Made by a program: the position numbers and the translations under genes | Shown: positions 47,915-54,037 of the stretch, in pieces | How the letters are laid out: the number at the start of each line of letters is the position of its first letter | How positions within the stretch are numbered: the first letter of the stretch is position 1 | The notes under the pieces: model-generated | What the model was told of the DNA's origin: nothing | Database searches by the model: none | Seen by the model: the letters and a program-made list of their open reading frames with translations, nothing else | Source: Thainema sp. | GTDB lineage: Bacteria; Cyanobacteriota; Cyanobacteriia; Phormidesmidales; Phormidesmidaceae | Direction of reading: 5' to 3' | Length of the DNA stretch: 64,000 nt | NCBI GenBank assembly: GCA_052168235.1 | Contig: JBQLZK010000002.1 | Span: forward strand, 96,001-160,000

Positions 47915-48079
47915 GGCGTTAAAGAGTCTGGGAACTTTTAACTTAGTTGTACCCTTTCGGGATTGAGTTGTACCCCGAATTTGGTCGAAAAAGTAGTTCG
48001 CTGGCCTGTAGTCATACCATACGCACTTTGAGATCTGAGATCAGTTTGCGATCGCTGTTTGATAGCTACACCCAAACAG

Positions 48080-48835
48080 ATGATTGACCCTGATCAACCA
48101 ACACTCGATCCAACGTGCATTACCCAAACTGTTCTTACGCAACACCTTTGCAACACGTTACTGCAACACATTACTATGGCTAGCATTAGACGCTTCATCC
48201 AAGCCGTTCATCGCTATTACACAACTGGCGAGGTCGGCGATGTGGCTTTTCTCAAAATCAATCTGTTCAAAGCAGGAGTGAATCCGGCGATTCAAGACCA
48301 GCTTCAGAAGTTGGCCGGATACTATCCCAAAATCGACCTGGATCAGCTCAGCCAGCTACCGCCGGGAACGCTTGGCTACGAATACGCTCAGCATATGCGG
48401 AAAAATGGCATTCAGCCGTTGAACATTAGCCCCGACCTGCATGAAGCAGCCAACCGCAACCCGTTTGCGCTGCGCTATGTGGTGACGCACGATATGTTTC
48501 ACGTTCTGCTGGGATTTGACACGAGCTATGCCGGAGAAATTGGGGTCTATTCGTTTGTGGTGGCGCAGAACTACAGCAAATTGTTGAACCTGTTTCATCC
48601 CGTGGCCCAGGTACTTTATCCGGTAATTGAACCCCGGCGCATCAAGGAAACGCGCTCGTTTTTCCGGCTGGGAAAGGCGTTAGGTGAGCAGGCGCAGTGT
48701 CTATTAACCTATCGGTTTGAAGATAATTGGGAACGACCGATTGCGGATGTGCGATCTCAACTGGGTTTGGTCTTGACGACTCAACAGCCACCATCTGATG
48801 ACGCTTATCCAGCGACTCCAGCCGTCATCCACTGA
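48080..48835 (+). CDS. Coq4 family protein
   Basis: 'LPPGTLGYEYA', metal motif 'HDMFHVLLGFDTSYAGE'; start 48059 or 48080. Confidence 0.85.
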   Translation: MIDPDQPTLDPTCITQTVLTQHLCNTLLQHITMASIRRFIQAVHRYYTTGEVGDVAFLKINLFKAGVNPAIQDQLQKLAGYYPKIDLDQLSQLPPGTLGYEYAQHMRKNGIQPLNISPDLHEAANRNPFALRYVVTHDMFHVLLGFDTSYAGEIGVYSFVVAQNYSKLLNLFHPVAQVLYPVIEPRRIKETRSFFRLGKALGEQAQCLLTYRFEDNWERPIADVRSQLGLVLTTQQPPSDDAYPATPAVIH

Positions 48836-48892
48836 TGATTGCAGAAACGGCTGAAGCTTAAGTCTGCTCAAAATTCCTGCTCCCGCTCTGGG

Positions 48893-49056
48893 CTGCTACT
48901 TATACACATCTGAATGGTTCGTCTAAATCCTGGACTGATCCCCCTAAATCCCCCTTAAAAAGGGGGAACTTTGAGCCAATTCCCCCCTTTTTAAGGGGGG
49001 CTAGGGGGGATCTCAACGTCGAAACGAAGTCTAGAAGACTTATGTATAAACAGTAG
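48893..49056. mobile_element. MITE (about 164 bp), same family as the element at 62826-63118
   Basis: Imperfect TIRs ctgctacttataca/tgtataaacagtag; internal palindrome tccccctaaatccccctt...aaggggggctaggggggat; near-identical to the second copy. Confidence 0.85.
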
Positions 49057-49093
49057 CCCGCAGGAGAAGGGGAGCCGGAAAGTTAATTTTTCA

Positions 49094-49132
49094 AAGTCCC
49101 TCTCCTGTGGGAGAGGGATTTAGGGTGAGGGC
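49094..49132. repeat. Cyanobacterial short dispersed repeat (ccctctcc...ggagagggatttagggtgagggc type)
   Basis: aagtccctctcctgtgggagagggatttagggtgagggc directly after the stop of the 93-aa ORF. Confidence 0.6.
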
Positions 49133-49134
49133 AA

Positions 49135-49416
49135 TTAGTTCAAGTACTGCGTCAGAATGCTCATTTGATCATCGGGTTGCCTGGGTAAGAGTCGCGCTAC
49201 GTCTCCGGCACCGGGACAGGGAATCGGCTGGCTCCAGTCGTTGGCTTCGGCAAAGCCGCGTCGATGCAGGTTTTTGATCGTGATGATGATGTCGGAACGG
49301 GTGCCGAGCAGAATAATTCGCAGGGGATGGCGACCGTCGGGCTGGAAGCTGCTGGGGTTGGGCGCACTGGACTGTAGCGCTGCATCGGAGGCAGCACCGA
49401 GAATGAAATATGTCAT
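49135..49416 (-). CDS. Small hypothetical protein (93 aa), candidate antisense-controlled effector
   Basis: AGGAGAA RBS; 'PLRIILLG...TIKNLHRRGFAEANDWSQPIP...MSIL' resembles a recurring cyanobacterial hypothetical family (from memory, not searched). Confidence 0.8.
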   Translation of the reverse strand: MTYFILGAASDAALQSSAPNPSSFQPDGRHPLRIILLGTRSDIIITIKNLHRRGFAEANDWSQPIPCPGAGDVARLLPRQPDDQMSILTQYLN

Positions 49417-49522
49417 TGTGGTTCTCCTGTTTTTGACTTTTTGAGGAAAGCCAAAAACCTAGCCACCCCGCAAACGTGCAGCGCAATGCAGGGTGGCTTT
49501 GGAGAAGGTTATAATCCTCCAC

Positions 49523-49593
49523 AGCCTCCGCGTTGCCGAGTACAACCGGGGGTTAGCTATCCAGGGTTGGTCGCAACAACTCTGGGTAGCGTT
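49523..49593 (+). ncRNA. Predicted SymR-like cis-antisense RNA
   Basis: TATAAT at 49510-49515 then two hairpins (49523-49554, 49556-49590) whose G-U pairs form only on the + strand. Confidence 0.5.
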
Positions 49594-49652
49594 GACTAGA
49601 TTTTTGGTAGCAGTCGCCGCACGTGTTTAGGGCTACGACAACTTAACGTTTC

Positions 49653-49681
49653 ACAGTACGGTATCTGGCCTGTGGAGTCAA
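49653..49681 (-). promoter_or_regulatory. Sigma70-type promoter for the 93-aa ORF leader
   Basis: Minus strand TTGACT-N17-TACTGT. Confidence 0.55.
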
Positions 49682-49793
49682 TACAGGTTCACTGACAGAA
49701 TATAGAAATAGATGGGATTGTTGGGTTGAAGAATGAAGCTCATTTTAGAAGATTTGCGATTTATTTAGCATTCTAAAGCAAGAGTTTTAGGTT

Positions 49794-51509
49794 TCAATTC
49801 GCCGAAAGCTCTATATTGTCTAAAGCTACTTTATAAATCCTTTTTGCCCTCAAGGCATTCAAATCATTTTCTTTAGAAAGGTTGATAATGGCTTCGCGCA
49901 AAAAGCCAGAGAACTCTTCTCCTGCTTTAAGACCATGATTGATTATGAGATCCTTGTCAGGACCCTCTTCCATAAGCCACTGTTTCCATTGATCTAAAGT
50001 GCGAGTATTTAGATAATTTAAATCGTTTTCAGACCAGCTCTCATTTCTGATCATGCTGACTAGAATTTCATTAATACTCATATTCTGCTCAAAAGTAGCT
50101 ATCTTTTCTTCAAGATCAGGTACTAGACCAGCTAATTCGAAAATACCATTTTTTTCAACAATCAATCTTAAACTATATAAATCTTCTAGCTTGGAATAGC
50201 TTTCAATCCTATATCTTGCCCATTTCTCTGCATAGGAACTAATATCTAGATCGATTGTATCTGAAATATCTTTTAGATCTGTTATTTCTCGGAAATCGAG
50301 TAGAGAATAATAACTATCTAAGAATGCCTTTATATTGTCCTGGAGTTCTTTCTCGGCAGGTTTAAATGATTCTAGAAATGGTTTACAAGCCTCATGAAAT
50401 TTTTCTTGCATTTCATATCTATTTTCTCTATCATTTAACCTGACACCTTCCTCATGAAACTTTTTATAATCGCAAAACGATGTTTCAACTAAACGAATAA
50501 TTTCATTGCTAATGTGTGAGTCTGTGTATCCAAGAGAACAAGCCAACATGTAGAAATCTCTCTTCTTGTTATTATTTTCAGATAGAATTTCTGAGAAGTC
50601 TCCCAATGAAACCAAATAATCCAAGTTTATGACGAAATTGCTGTCCAACTTGGATAATGTTATGAAAATAATCTCATTAATTATTTTTTCTCTAACTCTG
50701 GGTAAGAAATCGGCAATGTGTGGCCTCAATTTTTCAAGATTCCATCTTAGCTTCTTAAAAATTCTAATATTCTTAACTTGAACAGTTTCTTGACTGAGGT
50801 AATTAAAAACGATCTCTTTATCCGGATCATTTTCGCCAAAGCCAATATTGAAGTTCTCTACCAGATTGGGATCTAGTTTAATCTCATAGTCAATCACTTT
50901 TTCTCTATAGTCTTTCAGAATGCTGGTAGATTCTGAATCCAAGGCGATTTTGCTTTCGTTGTAAATAAGAATAACCTTACATTCTTTTTCCTCTGATAGA
51001 TTTTCAATAAATCCTAATAGTTCCTCTAAAGGTAATTTTCTAGATCTTCTTTCAAGATCATCAATACAGATCAATTTCCTTTTAAGAAAATTACTAAGAA
51101 ACACATTGCTTGCCAATGAAATAGCTGCTGGCGCAAGTCCAACTCCGTGATCTCCAATTGGAAGTTCTTTAATCAGGCTTCCTATATCTTGCGAGTTATC
51201 TCTGATAGGTTTGAACCATTTCCGAAAGCGTAACTTATTGCTTTCACTGTCATTTGATTGTCCGACCGATCTGTAGTTGCTCCATAGTTGGATACGCAGT
51301 TCCTCAATAGTTGAGACTCCAAAAACAGAGGCGTAGTAGTACTGTTGATTATTGCTTGATAAGATACTTGTTATCAAATGTGTTTTGCCAATTCCCCAAT
51401 CTCCTTTGATGGCAAATACTTTAGCCTCGTTACCTTGCTCCAGAAATGCTTTAATAGCTTCTTCTGATTCTTTACGTTCTAGCCCAAAAGTATATTCGTT
51501 ATTTTTCAT
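49794..51509 (-). CDS. KAP-family P-loop NTPase
   Basis: Walker A 'AIKGDWGIGKT', Walker B 'ICIDDLER', 'YREKVID', 'KNIR..KK'; markedly AT-rich; no HIP1 seen. Confidence 0.82.
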   Translation of the reverse strand: MKNNEYTFGLERKESEEAIKAFLEQGNEAKVFAIKGDWGIGKTHLITSILSSNNQQYYYASVFGVSTIEELRIQLWSNYRSVGQSNDSESNKLRFRKWFKPIRDNSQDIGSLIKELPIGDHGVGLAPAAISLASNVFLSNFLKRKLICIDDLERRSRKLPLEELLGFIENLSEEKECKVILIYNESKIALDSESTSILKDYREKVIDYEIKLDPNLVENFNIGFGENDPDKEIVFNYLSQETVQVKNIRIFKKLRWNLEKLRPHIADFLPRVREKIINEIIFITLSKLDSNFVINLDYLVSLGDFSEILSENNNKKRDFYMLACSLGYTDSHISNEIIRLVETSFCDYKKFHEEGVRLNDRENRYEMQEKFHEACKPFLESFKPAEKELQDNIKAFLDSYYSLLDFREITDLKDISDTIDLDISSYAEKWARYRIESYSKLEDLYSLRLIVEKNGIFELAGLVPDLEEKIATFEQNMSINEILVSMIRNESWSENDLNYLNTRTLDQWKQWLMEEGPDKDLIINHGLKAGEEFSGFLREAIINLSKENDLNALRAKRIYKVALDNIELSAN

Positions 51510-51556
51510 AAATGTTTAAGCTTTAGCCCAACTTGCTCATCCCATCACTTATTATC

Positions 51557-51588
51557 GGTGCGTTTCGCTTCGCTCTACACACCCTACA
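51557..51588 (-). repeat. GTAG-type REP (copy 1)
   Basis: Minus strand tgtagggtgtgtagagcgaagcgaaacgcacc. Confidence 0.75.
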
Positions 51589-51596
51589 AATTCTGG

Positions 51597-51965
51597 TTAC
51601 AACACCTCGATTCTGACTACTCCACCCTCAACAGCATCTATCTGTAACCTGTATCCATAAAGCATTCCCATCCCAATTAAAGGCTCCGTTTCCGACTCGG
51701 CAACATCAACATCTCGATATTGCCCATCCCAAATAATTGTTGCCGCGTACAAATCAAATAGCGCCTCACTACCATCACCCAAAGTGACAATATCTGAGGC
51801 ATTCCAAGGCAAATTCAATGCTGTAATCATTGCCGATGGCAACGTGAGAAAACCATTGAACCCCGTATCAATCACCGCATTAATAAGCTGCCGTTGTCCA
51901 CTCGCATTACCAACCACCAGCGGCAAAATCGCTTCACAGCGTTGATTAACCGTACCTTGAATCAT
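51597..51965 (-). CDS. Clan AA (retropepsin-like) aspartic protease
   Basis: MIQGTVN...'AVIDTGFNGFLTLP'...'PLIGMGML'; start at ATG 51965 overlapping the upstream stop (ATGA). Confidence 0.88.
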   Translation of the reverse strand: MIQGTVNQRCEAILPLVVGNASGQRQLINAVIDTGFNGFLTLPSAMITALNLPWNASDIVTLGDGSEALFDLYAATIIWDGQYRDVDVAESETEPLIGMGMLYGYRLQIDAVEGGVVRIEVL

Positions 51966-52237
51966 TTTTTCTTTTGCAAAGACCGTGCGCCGAAGTGATA
52001 AACCGCACGATGCCCAATCCGAATCACCCAAGGTTGAGCATCAGGATACTGTTCAAACAAGCGATTCGTCGCAGGCAAAACCTGATCCGCAACCTCAAAC
52101 GCACCCGTCTCAATATCAATCGCAACAATTCTGCCCTCATTGCCAGCCTCAACCTGCTGCCGAATACCCGATTCGTACAGCTCTTGCCCTCGTCGAGCCA
52201 ATTCCTCTTTGCTATGTCGCCGCTGTCGAACTGCCAT
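51962..52237 (-). CDS. Small partner protein (DUF5678-like) of aspartic protease
   Basis: MAVRQRRHSKEELARRGQELYE...'GRIVAIDIETGAFEV'...'WVIRIG'; translationally coupled to the protease. Confidence 0.8.
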   Translation of the reverse strand: MAVRQRRHSKEELARRGQELYESGIRQQVEAGNEGRIVAIDIETGAFEVADQVLPATNRLFEQYPDAQPWVIRIGHRAVYHFGARSLQKKK

Positions 52238-52371
52238 ATTTCGCCCTAGCTCAACGCCCAACACAATTATATCTTGAGCAAAAATCAGCTTTTGCAGTGC
52301 GACTCATGCAACCATTGTCGGTTGTAGCACTGTTATTTCTAGGACGCATCATCGCATCCCATCACCTGTTA

Positions 52372-53688: not shown

Positions 53689-53910
53689 TTATTTTGGCAT
53701 CGCTTCAATTAACGCTCTCAAAGCTTTGTTAACTGATTCTGGTGTCTTGAAAACCTGAGCTACATCATCATCTAAAACAACTACCTTTAGCTGATTTTCT
53801 TTACTACGGGCCGCAAACCGATTCGGCCTCGCTTTCTGATAATCGAACTGGTATTCAGCTAAAAGCTCATCATTCGAATTTTGGGGCCGATCAGAGGCCA
53901 TTTTGTTCAT
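53689..53910 (-). CDS. BrnA-like antitoxin
   Basis: 'DELLAEYQFDYQKARPNRFA...VVLDDDVAQVFKTPESVNKALRALI'; overlaps the 3' end of the brnT remnant. Confidence 0.75.
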   Translation of the reverse strand: MNKMASDRPQNSNDELLAEYQFDYQKARPNRFAARSKENQLKVVVLDDDVAQVFKTPESVNKALRALIEAMPK

Positions 53911-54037
53911 AATCCTCACGTTCTTGGCGTTTAGCTAAACGAGCACTAATAATACGAATGCGCCTAGCTTCTTCAAAGCTAACATCGTGCTTCTTCAAAT
54001 TAGCGGCAGCTTTTGCCTGATCCCATTCAAATTTCAT
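53891..54037 (-). pseudogene. brnT: BrnT-family toxin with internal in-frame deletion (48 aa)
   Basis: Not in track; MKFEWDQAKAAANLKKHDVSFEEA joined directly to RRIRIISARLAKRQEREDYEQNGL*. Confidence 0.85.

Follow-up and report, generated by a model that had tools for sequence, protein, structure and literature searches.

The locus described here lies in Thainema sp. (GCA_052168235.1, contig JBQLZK010000002.1), and all coordinates refer to the window, that is, the whole stretch of 64,000 nt that was analysed. A cassette of approximately 640 nt (49700-49057) comprises a promoter, a 230-nt leader, a gene for a 93-aa protein and a terminal repeat, all read on the minus strand, and a candidate antisense unit is read on the plus strand within the leader. 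The features, in the direction of the gene, are as follows.

49676..49681, minus strand: -35 box of the sense promoter, TTGACT, read in the sequence, with a 17-nt spacer to the -10 box
49653..49658, minus strand: -10 box of the sense promoter, TACTGT, whose T, A and final T do not vary in alignment A2
49612..49643, minus strand: P0, the 5' hairpin of the leader, from folding; length varies among copies
49596..49607, minus strand: 5' strand of the closing stem P1, pairing with 49451..49462
49556..49590, plus strand: H1/H1' hairpin, the stem of 14 bp, the loop (49570-49576) of 7 nt and hypervariable; 93.8% of cells paired on the plus versus 84.4% on the minus strand
49525..49552, plus strand: H2/H2' hairpin with a hypervariable loop of 6-7 nt (49535-49541); 98.1% of cells paired on the plus versus 89.2% on the minus strand
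49521..49607, plus strand: candidate antisense RNA of ~85 nt, from folding: a short 5' tail, the two hairpins H2' and H1', then a single-stranded 3' tail able to pair with the 5' strand of P1; 3' end provisional
49510..49515, plus strand: -10 box of the candidate antisense promoter, TATAAT, in the H3 loop and facing H1/H2; TAnnAT in 22/22 copies
49500..49521, minus strand: H3 hairpin, from folding; stem in all aligned copies, of varying length
49461..49498, minus strand: H4 hairpin, its 16-nt loop conserved in part; 97.5% of cells paired, 3/11 pairs compensatory
49451..49462, minus strand: 3' strand of P1, from folding, RNAalifold and pairing counts
49435..49452, minus strand: putative H5, a small hairpin 3' of P1 that has two G residues in common with P1, from the alignment of 22 copies
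49423..49428, minus strand: Shine-Dalgarno sequence AGGAGA; GGAG or AAGG 6-9 nt 5' of the ATG in aligned copies
49135..49416, minus strand: 93-aa ORF (ATG at 49416), in which residues 1-28 form a variable, disordered N-terminus and residues 29-93 a conserved core; 26 close homologs, 210 family representatives
49057..49134, minus strand: 3' flank, a dispersed repeat with a hairpin, possibly a terminator; in the same place in the related loci L001 and L004

All of the elements listed in an initial annotation of this DNA, made from the letters alone, can be read in the sequence at the positions given there, and comparison with 21 related copies demonstrates that they are not a product of chance. 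The window by itself constitutes modest evidence, and the comparison among copies is decisive. The cassette is dispersed in many copies through genomes of Leptolyngbyales and Oculatellales, with at least nine loci in one MAG and at least seven in Oculatella sp. LEGE 06141; no second copy was found inside the 64-kb window by tblastn, blastn or covariance model. When homologs of the protein were collected and their upstream regions aligned, a check that had been suggested with the annotation, the leader was found to be conserved across 22 copies and to carry compensatory changes. Its core is matched on the gene strand by the covariance model in the window and in 21 of the 26 related loci, and leader and protein occur together in all 22 copies that match. 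Between the orders, conservation of the leader (~80% identity) exceeds that of the protein (55-57%). More distant relatives of the protein, at four syntenic chromosomal and three plasmid loci searched with filters off, gave no credible match to the leader (best score 13.8 bits).

The 93-aa ORF is, on comparative grounds, a real conserved cyanobacterial gene, with codon positions 1 and 2 conserved above position 3 (0.887 versus 0.588 and 0.888 versus 0.748). Its protein family is found across cyanobacteria (210 representatives at 50% identity) and includes plasmid-borne members, one of which sits between a partition gene and a replication gene; a phage collection held no relatives. No toxin, defence-protein or structural match was obtained in Pfam (0 families at E<=0.1), NCBIfam, PADLOC, a PDB sequence-profile search (a single match, E 0.24, taken as chance) or Foldseek against the PDB (none at E<=0.001), and 20 diverse family members likewise had no match in Pfam, in keeping with the uncharacterised, non-SymE protein that had been predicted. 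Any likeness in fold is weak and points to small dimeric domains of the nucleic-acid-binding or ACT-like kind, led in Foldseek by the HPV E2 DNA-binding domain (E 0.43, TM 0.43). The ESM Atlas returned unnamed cyanobacterial clusters only, and among the 120 rows listed every named entry was a hypothetical protein, bar one with the UniRef label 'Peptide ABC transporter s...'. The AF2 model (pLDDT 76) has a small alpha/beta core without a long hydrophobic helix, and a GRAVY of -0.22 together with a maximum Kyte-Doolittle value of 1.04 over 19 residues indicates that there is no hydrophobic segment. The protein does not have the usual form of a type I toxin, a small hydrophobic membrane peptide, a form that is typical of the class and not strictly defining.

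Upstream of the gene, the minus-strand promoter, leader of ~230 nt and ribosome-binding site proposed initially are evident in the sequence, and the promoter pattern (TTGAC[TG], a spacer of 17-18 nt, TAnnnT) recurs in 20 of the 22 copies, the other two being cut by contig ends and keeping the -10 box. A promoter scan of 48800-50000 missed both the sense and the antisense promoter, returning one site (49797-49770) against 1.1 expected. In the predicted architecture P1 closes a junction around the four hairpins H1-H4, and both the long-range stem (P1) and the hairpin at 49461-49498 (H4), recognised from the single sequence, were recovered by folding. The whole leader folds with -91.3 kcal/mol on the minus strand (z -4.59, 0/200 shuffles as good) and with -89.9 kcal/mol on the plus strand (z -3.26, 1/200 shuffles as good). 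Compensatory changes were found in 12 of 44 RNAalifold pairs, and 11 of 45 pairs of the sense structure change on both sides, the observed values being reached by 0/500 shuffles. In P0, three of eight pairs are changed on both sides (RNAalifold) and U-G pairs are mostly those of the gene strand; P1, with 98.3% of cells paired on the gene strand, has no double compensatory changes and varies by one-sided G-U changes only. The nucleotides of the junction and of the H3 and H4 loops are invariant among copies, with an insertion of ~85 nt in the H4 loop of loci L024-L026. The H5 hairpin is weakly supported, its third pair being C-G or G-C depending on the copy and RNAalifold retaining three pairs. 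An anti-SD pairing in the single-sequence fold was not clearly retained in the alignment, which H5 fits better.

A conserved, covarying multi-helix structure in the 5' UTR would be expected of a riboswitch or another cis-regulatory leader, and one is present here; Rfam gave no riboswitch match, either across the whole window at gathering thresholds, where two tRNAs were the only matches, or at 48800-49900 with E<=10. In the latter search (cmscan, both strands, 4227 families) the element at 49417-49700 was matched only by three microRNA models (E 8.5-9.8), a chance result, and further matches, microRNA-type and others over a flanking palindromic repeat or the coding region and a sub-threshold whalefall-1 on the 3' repeat, were also judged to be chance. 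No terminator was found in a scan of 48800-50000, and no alternative terminator or antiterminator was identified in the leader.

The most informative property of the leader is a switch in the strand on which its wobble pairs form, and the strand-specific G-U pairs noticed at first in one sequence extend over all 22 copies. In H1 and H2, G-U pairs are antisense-only in 52 cells at 11 positions and sense-only in 1 cell at 1 position; in P1 and H4, they are sense-only in 45 cells at 10 positions and antisense-only in none, with 24 gene-strand cells at 5 positions in P1 and 21 in H4, each against 0 on the other strand. A Fisher test on positions gives p = 3.4e-5; the wobble counts are taken from related sequences and do not represent independent events. 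One H2 pair illustrates the pattern, reading G-C, G-U and A-U across copies on the plus strand and correspondingly G-C, A-C and A-U on the minus strand. Furthermore, H1 has compensatory changes in 8 of 14 pairs, and the antisense structure composed of H2' and H1' has 95.6% of cells paired and 13 of 24 pairs compensatory, which was matched by 0/500 shuffles. From this comparison, the structure of H1 and H2 appears to be selected on the plus (antisense) strand; the A-C oppositions could alternatively be tolerated or protonated mismatches of a sense-only RNA.

The initial observation of a plus-strand TATAAT followed by two hairpins likewise holds among the copies, with the hairpins at 49556-49590 and ~49525-49552. 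A G at -14 is present in 21/22 copies and a full TGn extended -10 in 12/22, and in all 12 the hexamer is one of the weaker ones, TAAGAT or TAAAAT; this promoter lacks a -35 box, and the conservation of TAnnAT could alternatively be that of a sense loop sequence, AUnnUA. The interval 49521..49607 folds with -39.7 kcal/mol (z -4.58) on the plus strand versus -26.3 kcal/mol (z -1.95) on the minus strand, and in all four copies tested (the window and three others) it is 7-18 kcal/mol better on the antisense strand. There is no canonical terminator 3' of H1', where a U-run begins ~10 nt past the stem and is interrupted in L024-L026. On comparative grounds, the copies speak strongly for a small structured antisense RNA that would start beside a -10 box embedded in the leader. 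The unit lies wholly inside the 5' UTR, with the -10 box 94 nt upstream of the ATG, and the candidate RNA runs away from the ORF, covering neither the Shine-Dalgarno sequence nor the start codon; its predicted pairing site is more than 90 nt upstream of the former.

Against this conserved scaffold the two loops are hypervariable. Comparison of the Oculatella paralogs gives an identity of 0.978 for the leader with its loops excluded, of 0.474 for the loops and of 0.748 for third codon positions, the last being 0.82-0.92 among six close Oculatella copies. Within each genome all loop combinations are different (8/8 and 7/7 copies), and the ortholog at L001 retains the loops of the window (14/14 nt). 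A contact between the two hairpins through complementary gttgc and gcaac segments, as originally envisaged, was not borne out: one partner lies in a hypervariable loop, and the cognate H1 and H2 loops are not more complementary than non-cognate ones (-1.22 versus -1.11 kcal/mol, 22 copies).

On these data we consider it probable that the locus is a self-contained cassette in which a cis-antisense RNA of ~85 nt recognises its own mRNA via two private loops, as in Sib/Ibs. Computation shows that the cassette is conserved, that each strand is structured, and that the -10 box and hypervariable loops are present; the transcript itself, which would start from an extended -10 promoter within the H3 loop, we infer. 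Transcription would cross the middle of the leader on both strands, with the sense mRNA folding into P0 and a junction that is closed by P1 and holds H1-H4, and with the antisense RNA presenting H2', H1' and the tail complementary to the 5' strand of P1. The two RNAs would make their first contact loop to loop at H1 and H2, and because the 7-nt loops change from paralog to paralog within a genome, each RNA would recognise only its own mRNA. Pairing would then spread and open P1, the A-C mismatches helping by making the sense hairpins less stable; the putative direction of regulation is negative, with the duplex reducing ORF expression, most likely through cleavage and decay. Comparison among copies supports a resemblance to dispersed type I TA loci, which extends to the multi-copy occurrence and the private, variable recognition patches. 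A more specific proposal, possible although in our view doubtful, is that of a new family of type I TA-like addiction cassettes in filamentous cyanobacteria, in which the toxin would be the 93-aa protein, soluble, of alpha/beta type and from a family that spans the cyanobacteria (its toxicity being presumed), the antisense RNA within the multi-helix leader would be the antitoxin, and two 7-nt kissing-loop barcodes would be kept different in every copy by diversifying selection, so that each copy would have to be retained on its own.

An alternative is a leader that acts on the sense strand only, as a riboswitch-like or protein-binding cis-regulatory 5' UTR without an antisense RNA, the A-C oppositions of H1 and H2 being tolerated mismatches and the loops unconstrained. 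The entire junction is in the 5' UTR behind a conserved sense promoter, the whole-leader z score is better on the minus strand, the nucleotides of the junction and of the H3 and H4 loops are invariant, and the antisense unit has neither a -35 box nor a clear terminator; in addition, tandem A-A and G-A oppositions, which occur in H1 of the Oculatella copies, suit a sense-strand internal loop. We regard this alternative as unlikely, as it leaves unexplained the non-Watson-Crick cells of H1 and H2 (A-C 52 versus G-U 1, with the reverse in P1 and H4), the G-C, G-U, A-U series on the other strand only, the TGn that accompanies weaker hexamers and the divergence of the loops, which is faster than that of third codon positions. 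The switch in wobble strand would also be left unexplained if the protein binds the junction or the H3 and H4 loops of its own mRNA, with or without an antisense RNA. Such autoregulation would fit the basic conserved core (pI 9.3), the weak fold likenesses described above, the joint occurrence of leader and protein in every copy and the strong RNA constraint implied by copy L010, in which the leader outside the loops is 95-99% identical to that of the others despite third codon positions that are 39-43% identical. However, no significant structural or sequence match to RNA-binding families was found and the distant family members searched are without the leader, which makes this explanation decidedly improbable.

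The genomic neighbourhood bears on a further alternative. Of the TA/defence island originally proposed, one part stands, in that the KAP NTPase next to the cassette is matched by a candidate system of PADLOC; the KAP gene is an insert specific to this strain and is lacking at the orthologous locus L001, and other copies adjoin unrelated genes. Several copies do have defence-type neighbours (KAP NTPase, TIR, NACHT, CHAT, ThsA Macro with an integrase, ParE, Uma2), which, with scaffolds that are identical and 7-nt loops that differ completely from copy to copy within a genome, might suggest a guide or sensor RNA whose loops address foreign or cellular RNAs or DNA, for example phage transcripts. 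This we consider very improbable: 7 nt are short for a specific address, the loops are already accounted for by cis-complementarity, the protein has no relatives in the phage collection, and no recombinase, nuclease or other effector gene is common to the loci. There was no conserved neighbouring gene of any kind among the 91 ORFs scanned, a set chosen from 148 candidate ORFs around the 26 loci by omitting those that overlap the cassette gene and those most distant.

The preferred reading, recognition of each mRNA by its own antisense RNA, has partial parallels in several known systems. The antisense RNAs of CopA/CopT and RNAI/RNAII are stable stem-loops that recognise their targets by loop-loop kissing; mismatches or bulges in their stems aid the spread of the duplex, and loop differences define groups that do not cross-react. 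The candidate RNA would share all of these traits, namely the stem-loop form, kissing loops, stem mismatches and loop-defined specificity groups. Those pairs serve in plasmid replication control, however, whereas the cassettes are dispersed on chromosomes and the candidate RNA would act on a small-protein gene through its leader, and no sequence or Rfam relationship to them was found (Rfam at E<=10). The antitoxin RNA IstR-1, which is divergently encoded with only partial complementarity to its target, acts far upstream of the ribosome-binding site, on a structured 5' UTR and not on the Shine-Dalgarno sequence, and the putative antisense site of the cassette is similarly placed. TisB, unlike the 93-aa protein, is a membrane-acting peptide (PMC6690012).

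A closer precedent for the loops is provided by Sib/Ibs, described as having two target-recognition domains in variable regions of otherwise similar paralogs (PMC2943612). Like those loci, the cassette has several near-identical chromosomal copies, a cis-encoded antisense RNA (a candidate one here) and two short recognition patches that are its only highly variable regions, and that in Sib/Ibs restrict each RNA to its own mRNA (PMC2943612). In contrast, the Ibs toxins are short peptides (IbsA has 19 aa; bioRxiv 10.1101/2025.05.26.656083) and the cassette encodes a soluble-looking protein of 93 aa; moreover, Sib overlaps the ORF and translation start (PMC2943612), and the candidate RNA lies wholly in the 5' UTR within a multi-helix junction. 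No Sib match was found in Rfam (window at gathering thresholds; 48800-49900 at E<=10), and what the two have in common is the logic of variable recognition patches only.

The kinship with SymR or C4 suggested in the initial annotation did not survive a check against the Rfam models, which gave no match to either at E<=10. SymR is reported to have its promoter inside the symE coding sequence and to face the 5' end of that gene (PMC1891008). The cassette resembles this pair in its putative cis-antisense RNA opposite the 5' part of the mRNA, its non-membrane protein and an antisense -10 box embedded in the sense transcript (PMC1891008); it departs from the SymR-like layout in that the antisense unit, promoter included, is upstream of the coding sequence and leaves the Shine-Dalgarno sequence and start codon uncovered. 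Furthermore, the lack of any Pfam match means that the 93-aa protein has no SymE or AbrB-type domain, and the cassette is not a member of SymE/SymR.

In cyanobacteria, antisense-regulated toxin-like loci were first proposed in 2025, in a report according to which type I TA systems had not been found there earlier (PMC12390103). Its msoT1/msoA1 candidate from Microcystis aeruginosa, the one of its loci compared here (nine others are also described), likewise has a cis-encoded antisense RNA of two hairpins; MsoT1, with 63 aa and two predicted membrane helices, is unrelated in kind to the 93-aa protein, and the target of MsoA1 is the ORF's 3' end together with the 3' UTR, in contrast to the 5' UTR position here (PMC12390103). 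Rfam, Pfam, NCBIfam and PADLOC contain neither the RNA nor the protein of the cassette. Should the antisense RNA prove real, the cassette would represent a previously undescribed RNA-controlled gene family in cyanobacteria, and a clear natural example both of selection for RNA structure on the two strands of one short stretch and of recognition loops private to each paralog. The strand that bears the wobble pairs would then also offer a genome-only route to hidden antisense RNAs, and the locus gives a first handle on a small protein family that is spread across cyanobacteria.

The repeat that forms the 3' flank is not confined to the cassette, as it recurs at other sites in the related loci L002, L004 and L007. 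It was the only part of the cassette DNA to be matched in a search of a plasmid collection, and the matches are to three Leptolyngbya or Kovacikia plasmid records.

All of the sequence elements that the initial annotation described at this locus (the boxes of the minus-strand promoter, the plus-strand TATAAT, the leader, the ribosome-binding site and the 93-aa ORF) are present in the window, arranged as follows.

Elements of the cassette
49681-49676, minus strand: -35 box of the sense promoter, TTGACT (read in the sequence)
49658-49653, minus strand: -10 box of the sense promoter, TACTGT, after a 17-nt spacer
Between the sense promoter and the ORF, minus strand: leader of about 230 nt (read in the sequence)
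49596-49607 with 49451-49462, minus strand: long-range stem, P1 (from the fold)
49510-49515, plus strand: TATAAT (read in the sequence)
49428-49423, minus strand: AGGAGA, the Shine-Dalgarno (SD) element (read in the sequence)
49416 (ATG) to 49135, minus strand: 93-aa ORF (read in the sequence)

Locus comparison places the unit common to the paralogs at 49700-49057. Its 3' end (49057-49134) is a dispersed repeat with a hairpin, which is found again at related loci (L002, 5427-5495; L004, 7710-7783; L007, 7780-7848) and in three Leptolyngbya or Kovacikia plasmid records, and which gives a sub-threshold match to Rfam whalefall-1 (28.5 bits versus a threshold of 37). At Rfam gathering thresholds the whole window yields two tRNAs and nothing at the cassette, and at E ≤ 10 the cassette region gives chance matches only. 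A consensus scan of the region flagged neither the sense nor the candidate antisense promoter, nor any terminator, so that on the window alone the promoters are no better than chance. The single promoter-like site that it reported (TTGAAA, 16-nt spacer, TAGAAT; 49770-49797, minus strand) lies at the 3' end of a KAP NTPase gene, oriented towards the cassette and outside the block common with L001, the ortholog of the window locus.

Homologs of the ORF at 68-92% identity number 26, out of 28 candidates, many of them from a single Thainema metagenome-assembled genome (MAG). A scan of species-representative genomes with two peptide patterns, which reach close relatives only, gave 26 loci. Nine are in one MAG and seven in Oculatella sp. 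LEGE 06141, all others lying in Leptolyngbyaceae-type genomes; these copy numbers and this range are lower bounds. Thainema and Oculatella belong to different orders. At the level of sequence, the leader is conserved better than the protein, with identities of 73-97% where those of the protein are 44-89%, and the block conserved in the Oculatella copies corresponds to the junction enclosed by P1 (about 80% versus 55-57% for the protein). A covariance model of this junction matches the gene (minus) strand in the window and at 21 of the 26 loci. The loci that it misses are L009, which is truncated where its contig stops, and L018, L019, L020 and L023, single-copy syntenic relatives beside amidase, DUF4090 and GST genes, at which no credible leader match is seen even with filters off. 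Furthermore, the sense promoter (TTGAC[TG], a 17-18 nt spacer, TAnnnT) recurs in 20 of 22 copies, the remaining two being truncated with the -10 box kept.

On the minus strand, the leader folds into a 5' hairpin (P0) and a junction in which P1 encloses four hairpins (H1-H4), with an energy of -91.3 kcal/mol (z -4.59) that 0 of 200 shuffles equal; folded as the plus strand, this stretch has an energy of -89.9 kcal/mol (z -3.26), equalled by 1 of 200. RNAalifold predicted 44 pairs from 18 copies, 12 of them with compensatory changes. When the four-helix structure is scored on a MAFFT alignment, pairing holds in 91.8% of cells, and both sides have changed in 11 of 45 pairs. None of 500 shuffles reaches these values, and slid controls fall to 27-45% paired. 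The paired fractions on the gene strand are 98.3% for P1, in which double compensation is absent and changes are one-sided only, 97.5% for H4, 84.4% for H1 and 89.2% for H2. The H4 loop carries an insertion of about 85 nt in L024, L025 and L026 (4677-4925).

The helices that are weak on the gene strand, H1 and H2, are strong on the antisense strand. Read on the latter as H2' and H1', they are paired in 95.6% of cells across the reverse-strand alignment of 22 copies (98.1% and 93.8%, respectively), and 13 of their 24 pairs are compensatory (0 of 500 shuffles reach the observed values). Within H1/H2, 52 cells at 11 positions hold a wobble pair on the antisense strand only, versus one cell at one position on the gene strand only; for P1/H4 the corresponding counts are zero cells and 45 cells at 10 positions (Fisher test on wobble positions, p = 3.4e-5, which is a guide rather than a true probability because the sequences are related). 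Single positions pass through G-C, G-U and A-U on the antisense strand, which on the gene strand read G-C, A-C and A-U. The wobble pairs of P0 and H3 fall on the gene strand. In addition, in all four copies tested, one and the same stretch of about 87 nt has a much more stable fold when read on the antisense strand than on the gene strand (-39.7 versus -26.3 kcal/mol in the window, -41.0 versus -34.3 in L014, -43.9 versus -25.5 in L025 and -41.2 versus -23.8 in L004). The wobble counts, the antisense covariation and the fold energies thus bear out the central observation of the initial annotation, that the G-U pairs are strand-specific, and extend it as a conserved property.

On the antisense strand, the H3 loop contains TAnnAT, a candidate -10 box, in 22 of 22 copies (TAAGAT in 8, TATAAT in 6, TAAAAT in 5, TATGAT in 2 and TACAAT in 1), with a G at -14 in 21. 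Twelve of the 22 have the full TGn extended -10, always with TAAGAT or TAAAAT, and none of the 22 has a -35 box. An antisense RNA would start at about 49521, just before H2', and would be made up of the hairpins H2' and H1' followed by a single-stranded tail with complementarity to the P1 5' strand. On the strand that would form this tail, a U-run begins about 10 nt past H1' and is broken in L024-L026, which leaves the 3' end of the RNA undefined.

The seven Oculatella leaders are near-identical over a stretch that begins 25 nt before the -35 box and runs through the ATG; they differ in the loops of H1 and H2, in 2-3 nt separating P1 from H1, and in 3 nt separating the SD from the ATG. Outside the loops their mean pairwise identity is 0.978, within the loops it is 0.474, and at third codon positions 0.748; at the latter, six close copies share 0.82-0.92, and L010 only 0.39-0.43 with a leader still at 0.95-0.97. 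The eight MAG copies show the same three values at 0.788, 0.435 and 0.588. Within each genome the loop pair is private to each copy (8/8 in the MAG and 7/7 in Oculatella), and in the ortholog L001 all 14 loop nucleotides are those of the window. Judged by eye, most H1 loops read N-U-N-N-N-A-N, a pattern that is its own reverse complement, so that similar H1 loops would be presented by both strands. Within a copy, the H1 loop has no complementarity to the H2 loop, which argues against the contact between these hairpins that had been proposed.

The most economical reading of these patterns is that the leader forms part of a sense/antisense RNA pair. Two stable antisense hairpins would lie opposite two weakened sense hairpins, recognition would occur via loops that differ in every paralog, and pairing would then spread into the antisense tail, opening P1. 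For the ORF, the consequence would most likely be cleavage and decay, or possibly a structural effect on the leader. Experiments have demonstrated this recognition logic for Sib/Ibs, in which swapping two target-recognition domains located in variable regions switches specificity (PMC2943612). The suggested resemblance to SymE/SymR, as that system is summarised in PMC1891008, was not upheld, since position, protein (no Pfam match) and RNA family (no Rfam match) all differ. Also unlike the cassette is msoT1/msoA1, introduced as the first cyanobacterial candidate, with a 63-aa membrane protein and a 3' antisense RNA (PMC12390103), and the cassette protein does not resemble the type I toxins usually seen. 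Among the papers listed on type I toxin-antitoxin systems and antisense RNA in cyanobacteria, no title or abstract opening contains a description of the cassette family, and the protein is nameless.

The 93-aa ORF is a real gene, with a highly conserved core (residues 29-93, pI 9.3) and a variable N-terminus (about residues 10-28). A profile search of 1.84 billion representatives returned 210 family members at E ≤ 0.001, and a second gave 262 at E ≤ 1e-5 among 1292 candidates; of the 120 matches listed, every named one is a hypothetical protein except for one UniRef label that begins 'Peptide ABC transporter s'. The protein has no match in Pfam, NCBIfam or PADLOC, nor do 20 diverse relatives in Pfam, and it contains no hydrophobic segment. 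The AF2 model (80 sequences; pLDDT 76) predicts a disordered N-terminus and a core of strand, helix, short elements and strand; Foldseek found nothing at E ≤ 0.001 (best, the papillomavirus E2 DNA-binding domain, E 0.43). No relative was found in phages. Distant relatives occur on seven cyanobacterial plasmid records, a location that may offer a lead to the function of the family; on Trichormus variabilis plasmid D (L028, 1619-1918) the member has a ParG partition gene on one side and a replication-related gene on the other. The leader was not found at the plasmid-borne L027, L028 and L029 (covariance model, filters off). One member, P0040 (163 aa, Leptolyngbya sp. FACHB-261), has two tandem domain copies (two matched stretches), and others are much extended at the N-terminus, reaching total lengths of up to 210 aa.

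No recurring partner gene was seen among 91 neighbouring ORFs scanned (of 148 candidates at the 26 loci). The flanks of L001 match those of the window, and L001 is without two segments, one (about 49700-51989) holding the KAP NTPase and the aspartic protease, the other (about 47961-49057) the Coq4-like gene. The site upstream of the cassette looks like a variable slot: in the window it holds a 571-aa KAP-family P-loop NTPase (49794-51509, minus strand; Pfam KAP_NTPase; PADLOC candidate PDC-S49, E 3.7e-21), replaced at L001:2371-4718 by a gene for a DUF5131 protein and an unknown ORF of 447 aa. The Coq4-like gene (48059-48835, plus strand) and a long imperfect palindrome (about 48930-49015), which attracts spurious microRNA-model matches, are both missing in L001, where the flanks are only 114 nt apart. 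Beyond the KAP NTPase, further upstream of the cassette, the window has a small ORF and, after it, a clan AA aspartic protease (51597-52264, minus strand), and a similar pair is immediately upstream at L004:3916-4699; this association, at two of the 27 places examined (the window and 26 loci), may be coincidence. Finally, two small ORFs overlap within 53689-54037 (minus strand). The first, of 48 aa, aligns with the BrnT toxin profile (77 positions) over the first 22 positions only and looks like the remnant of a truncated type II toxin; its end is overlapped by the second, of 76 aa, for which Pfam gives no match.
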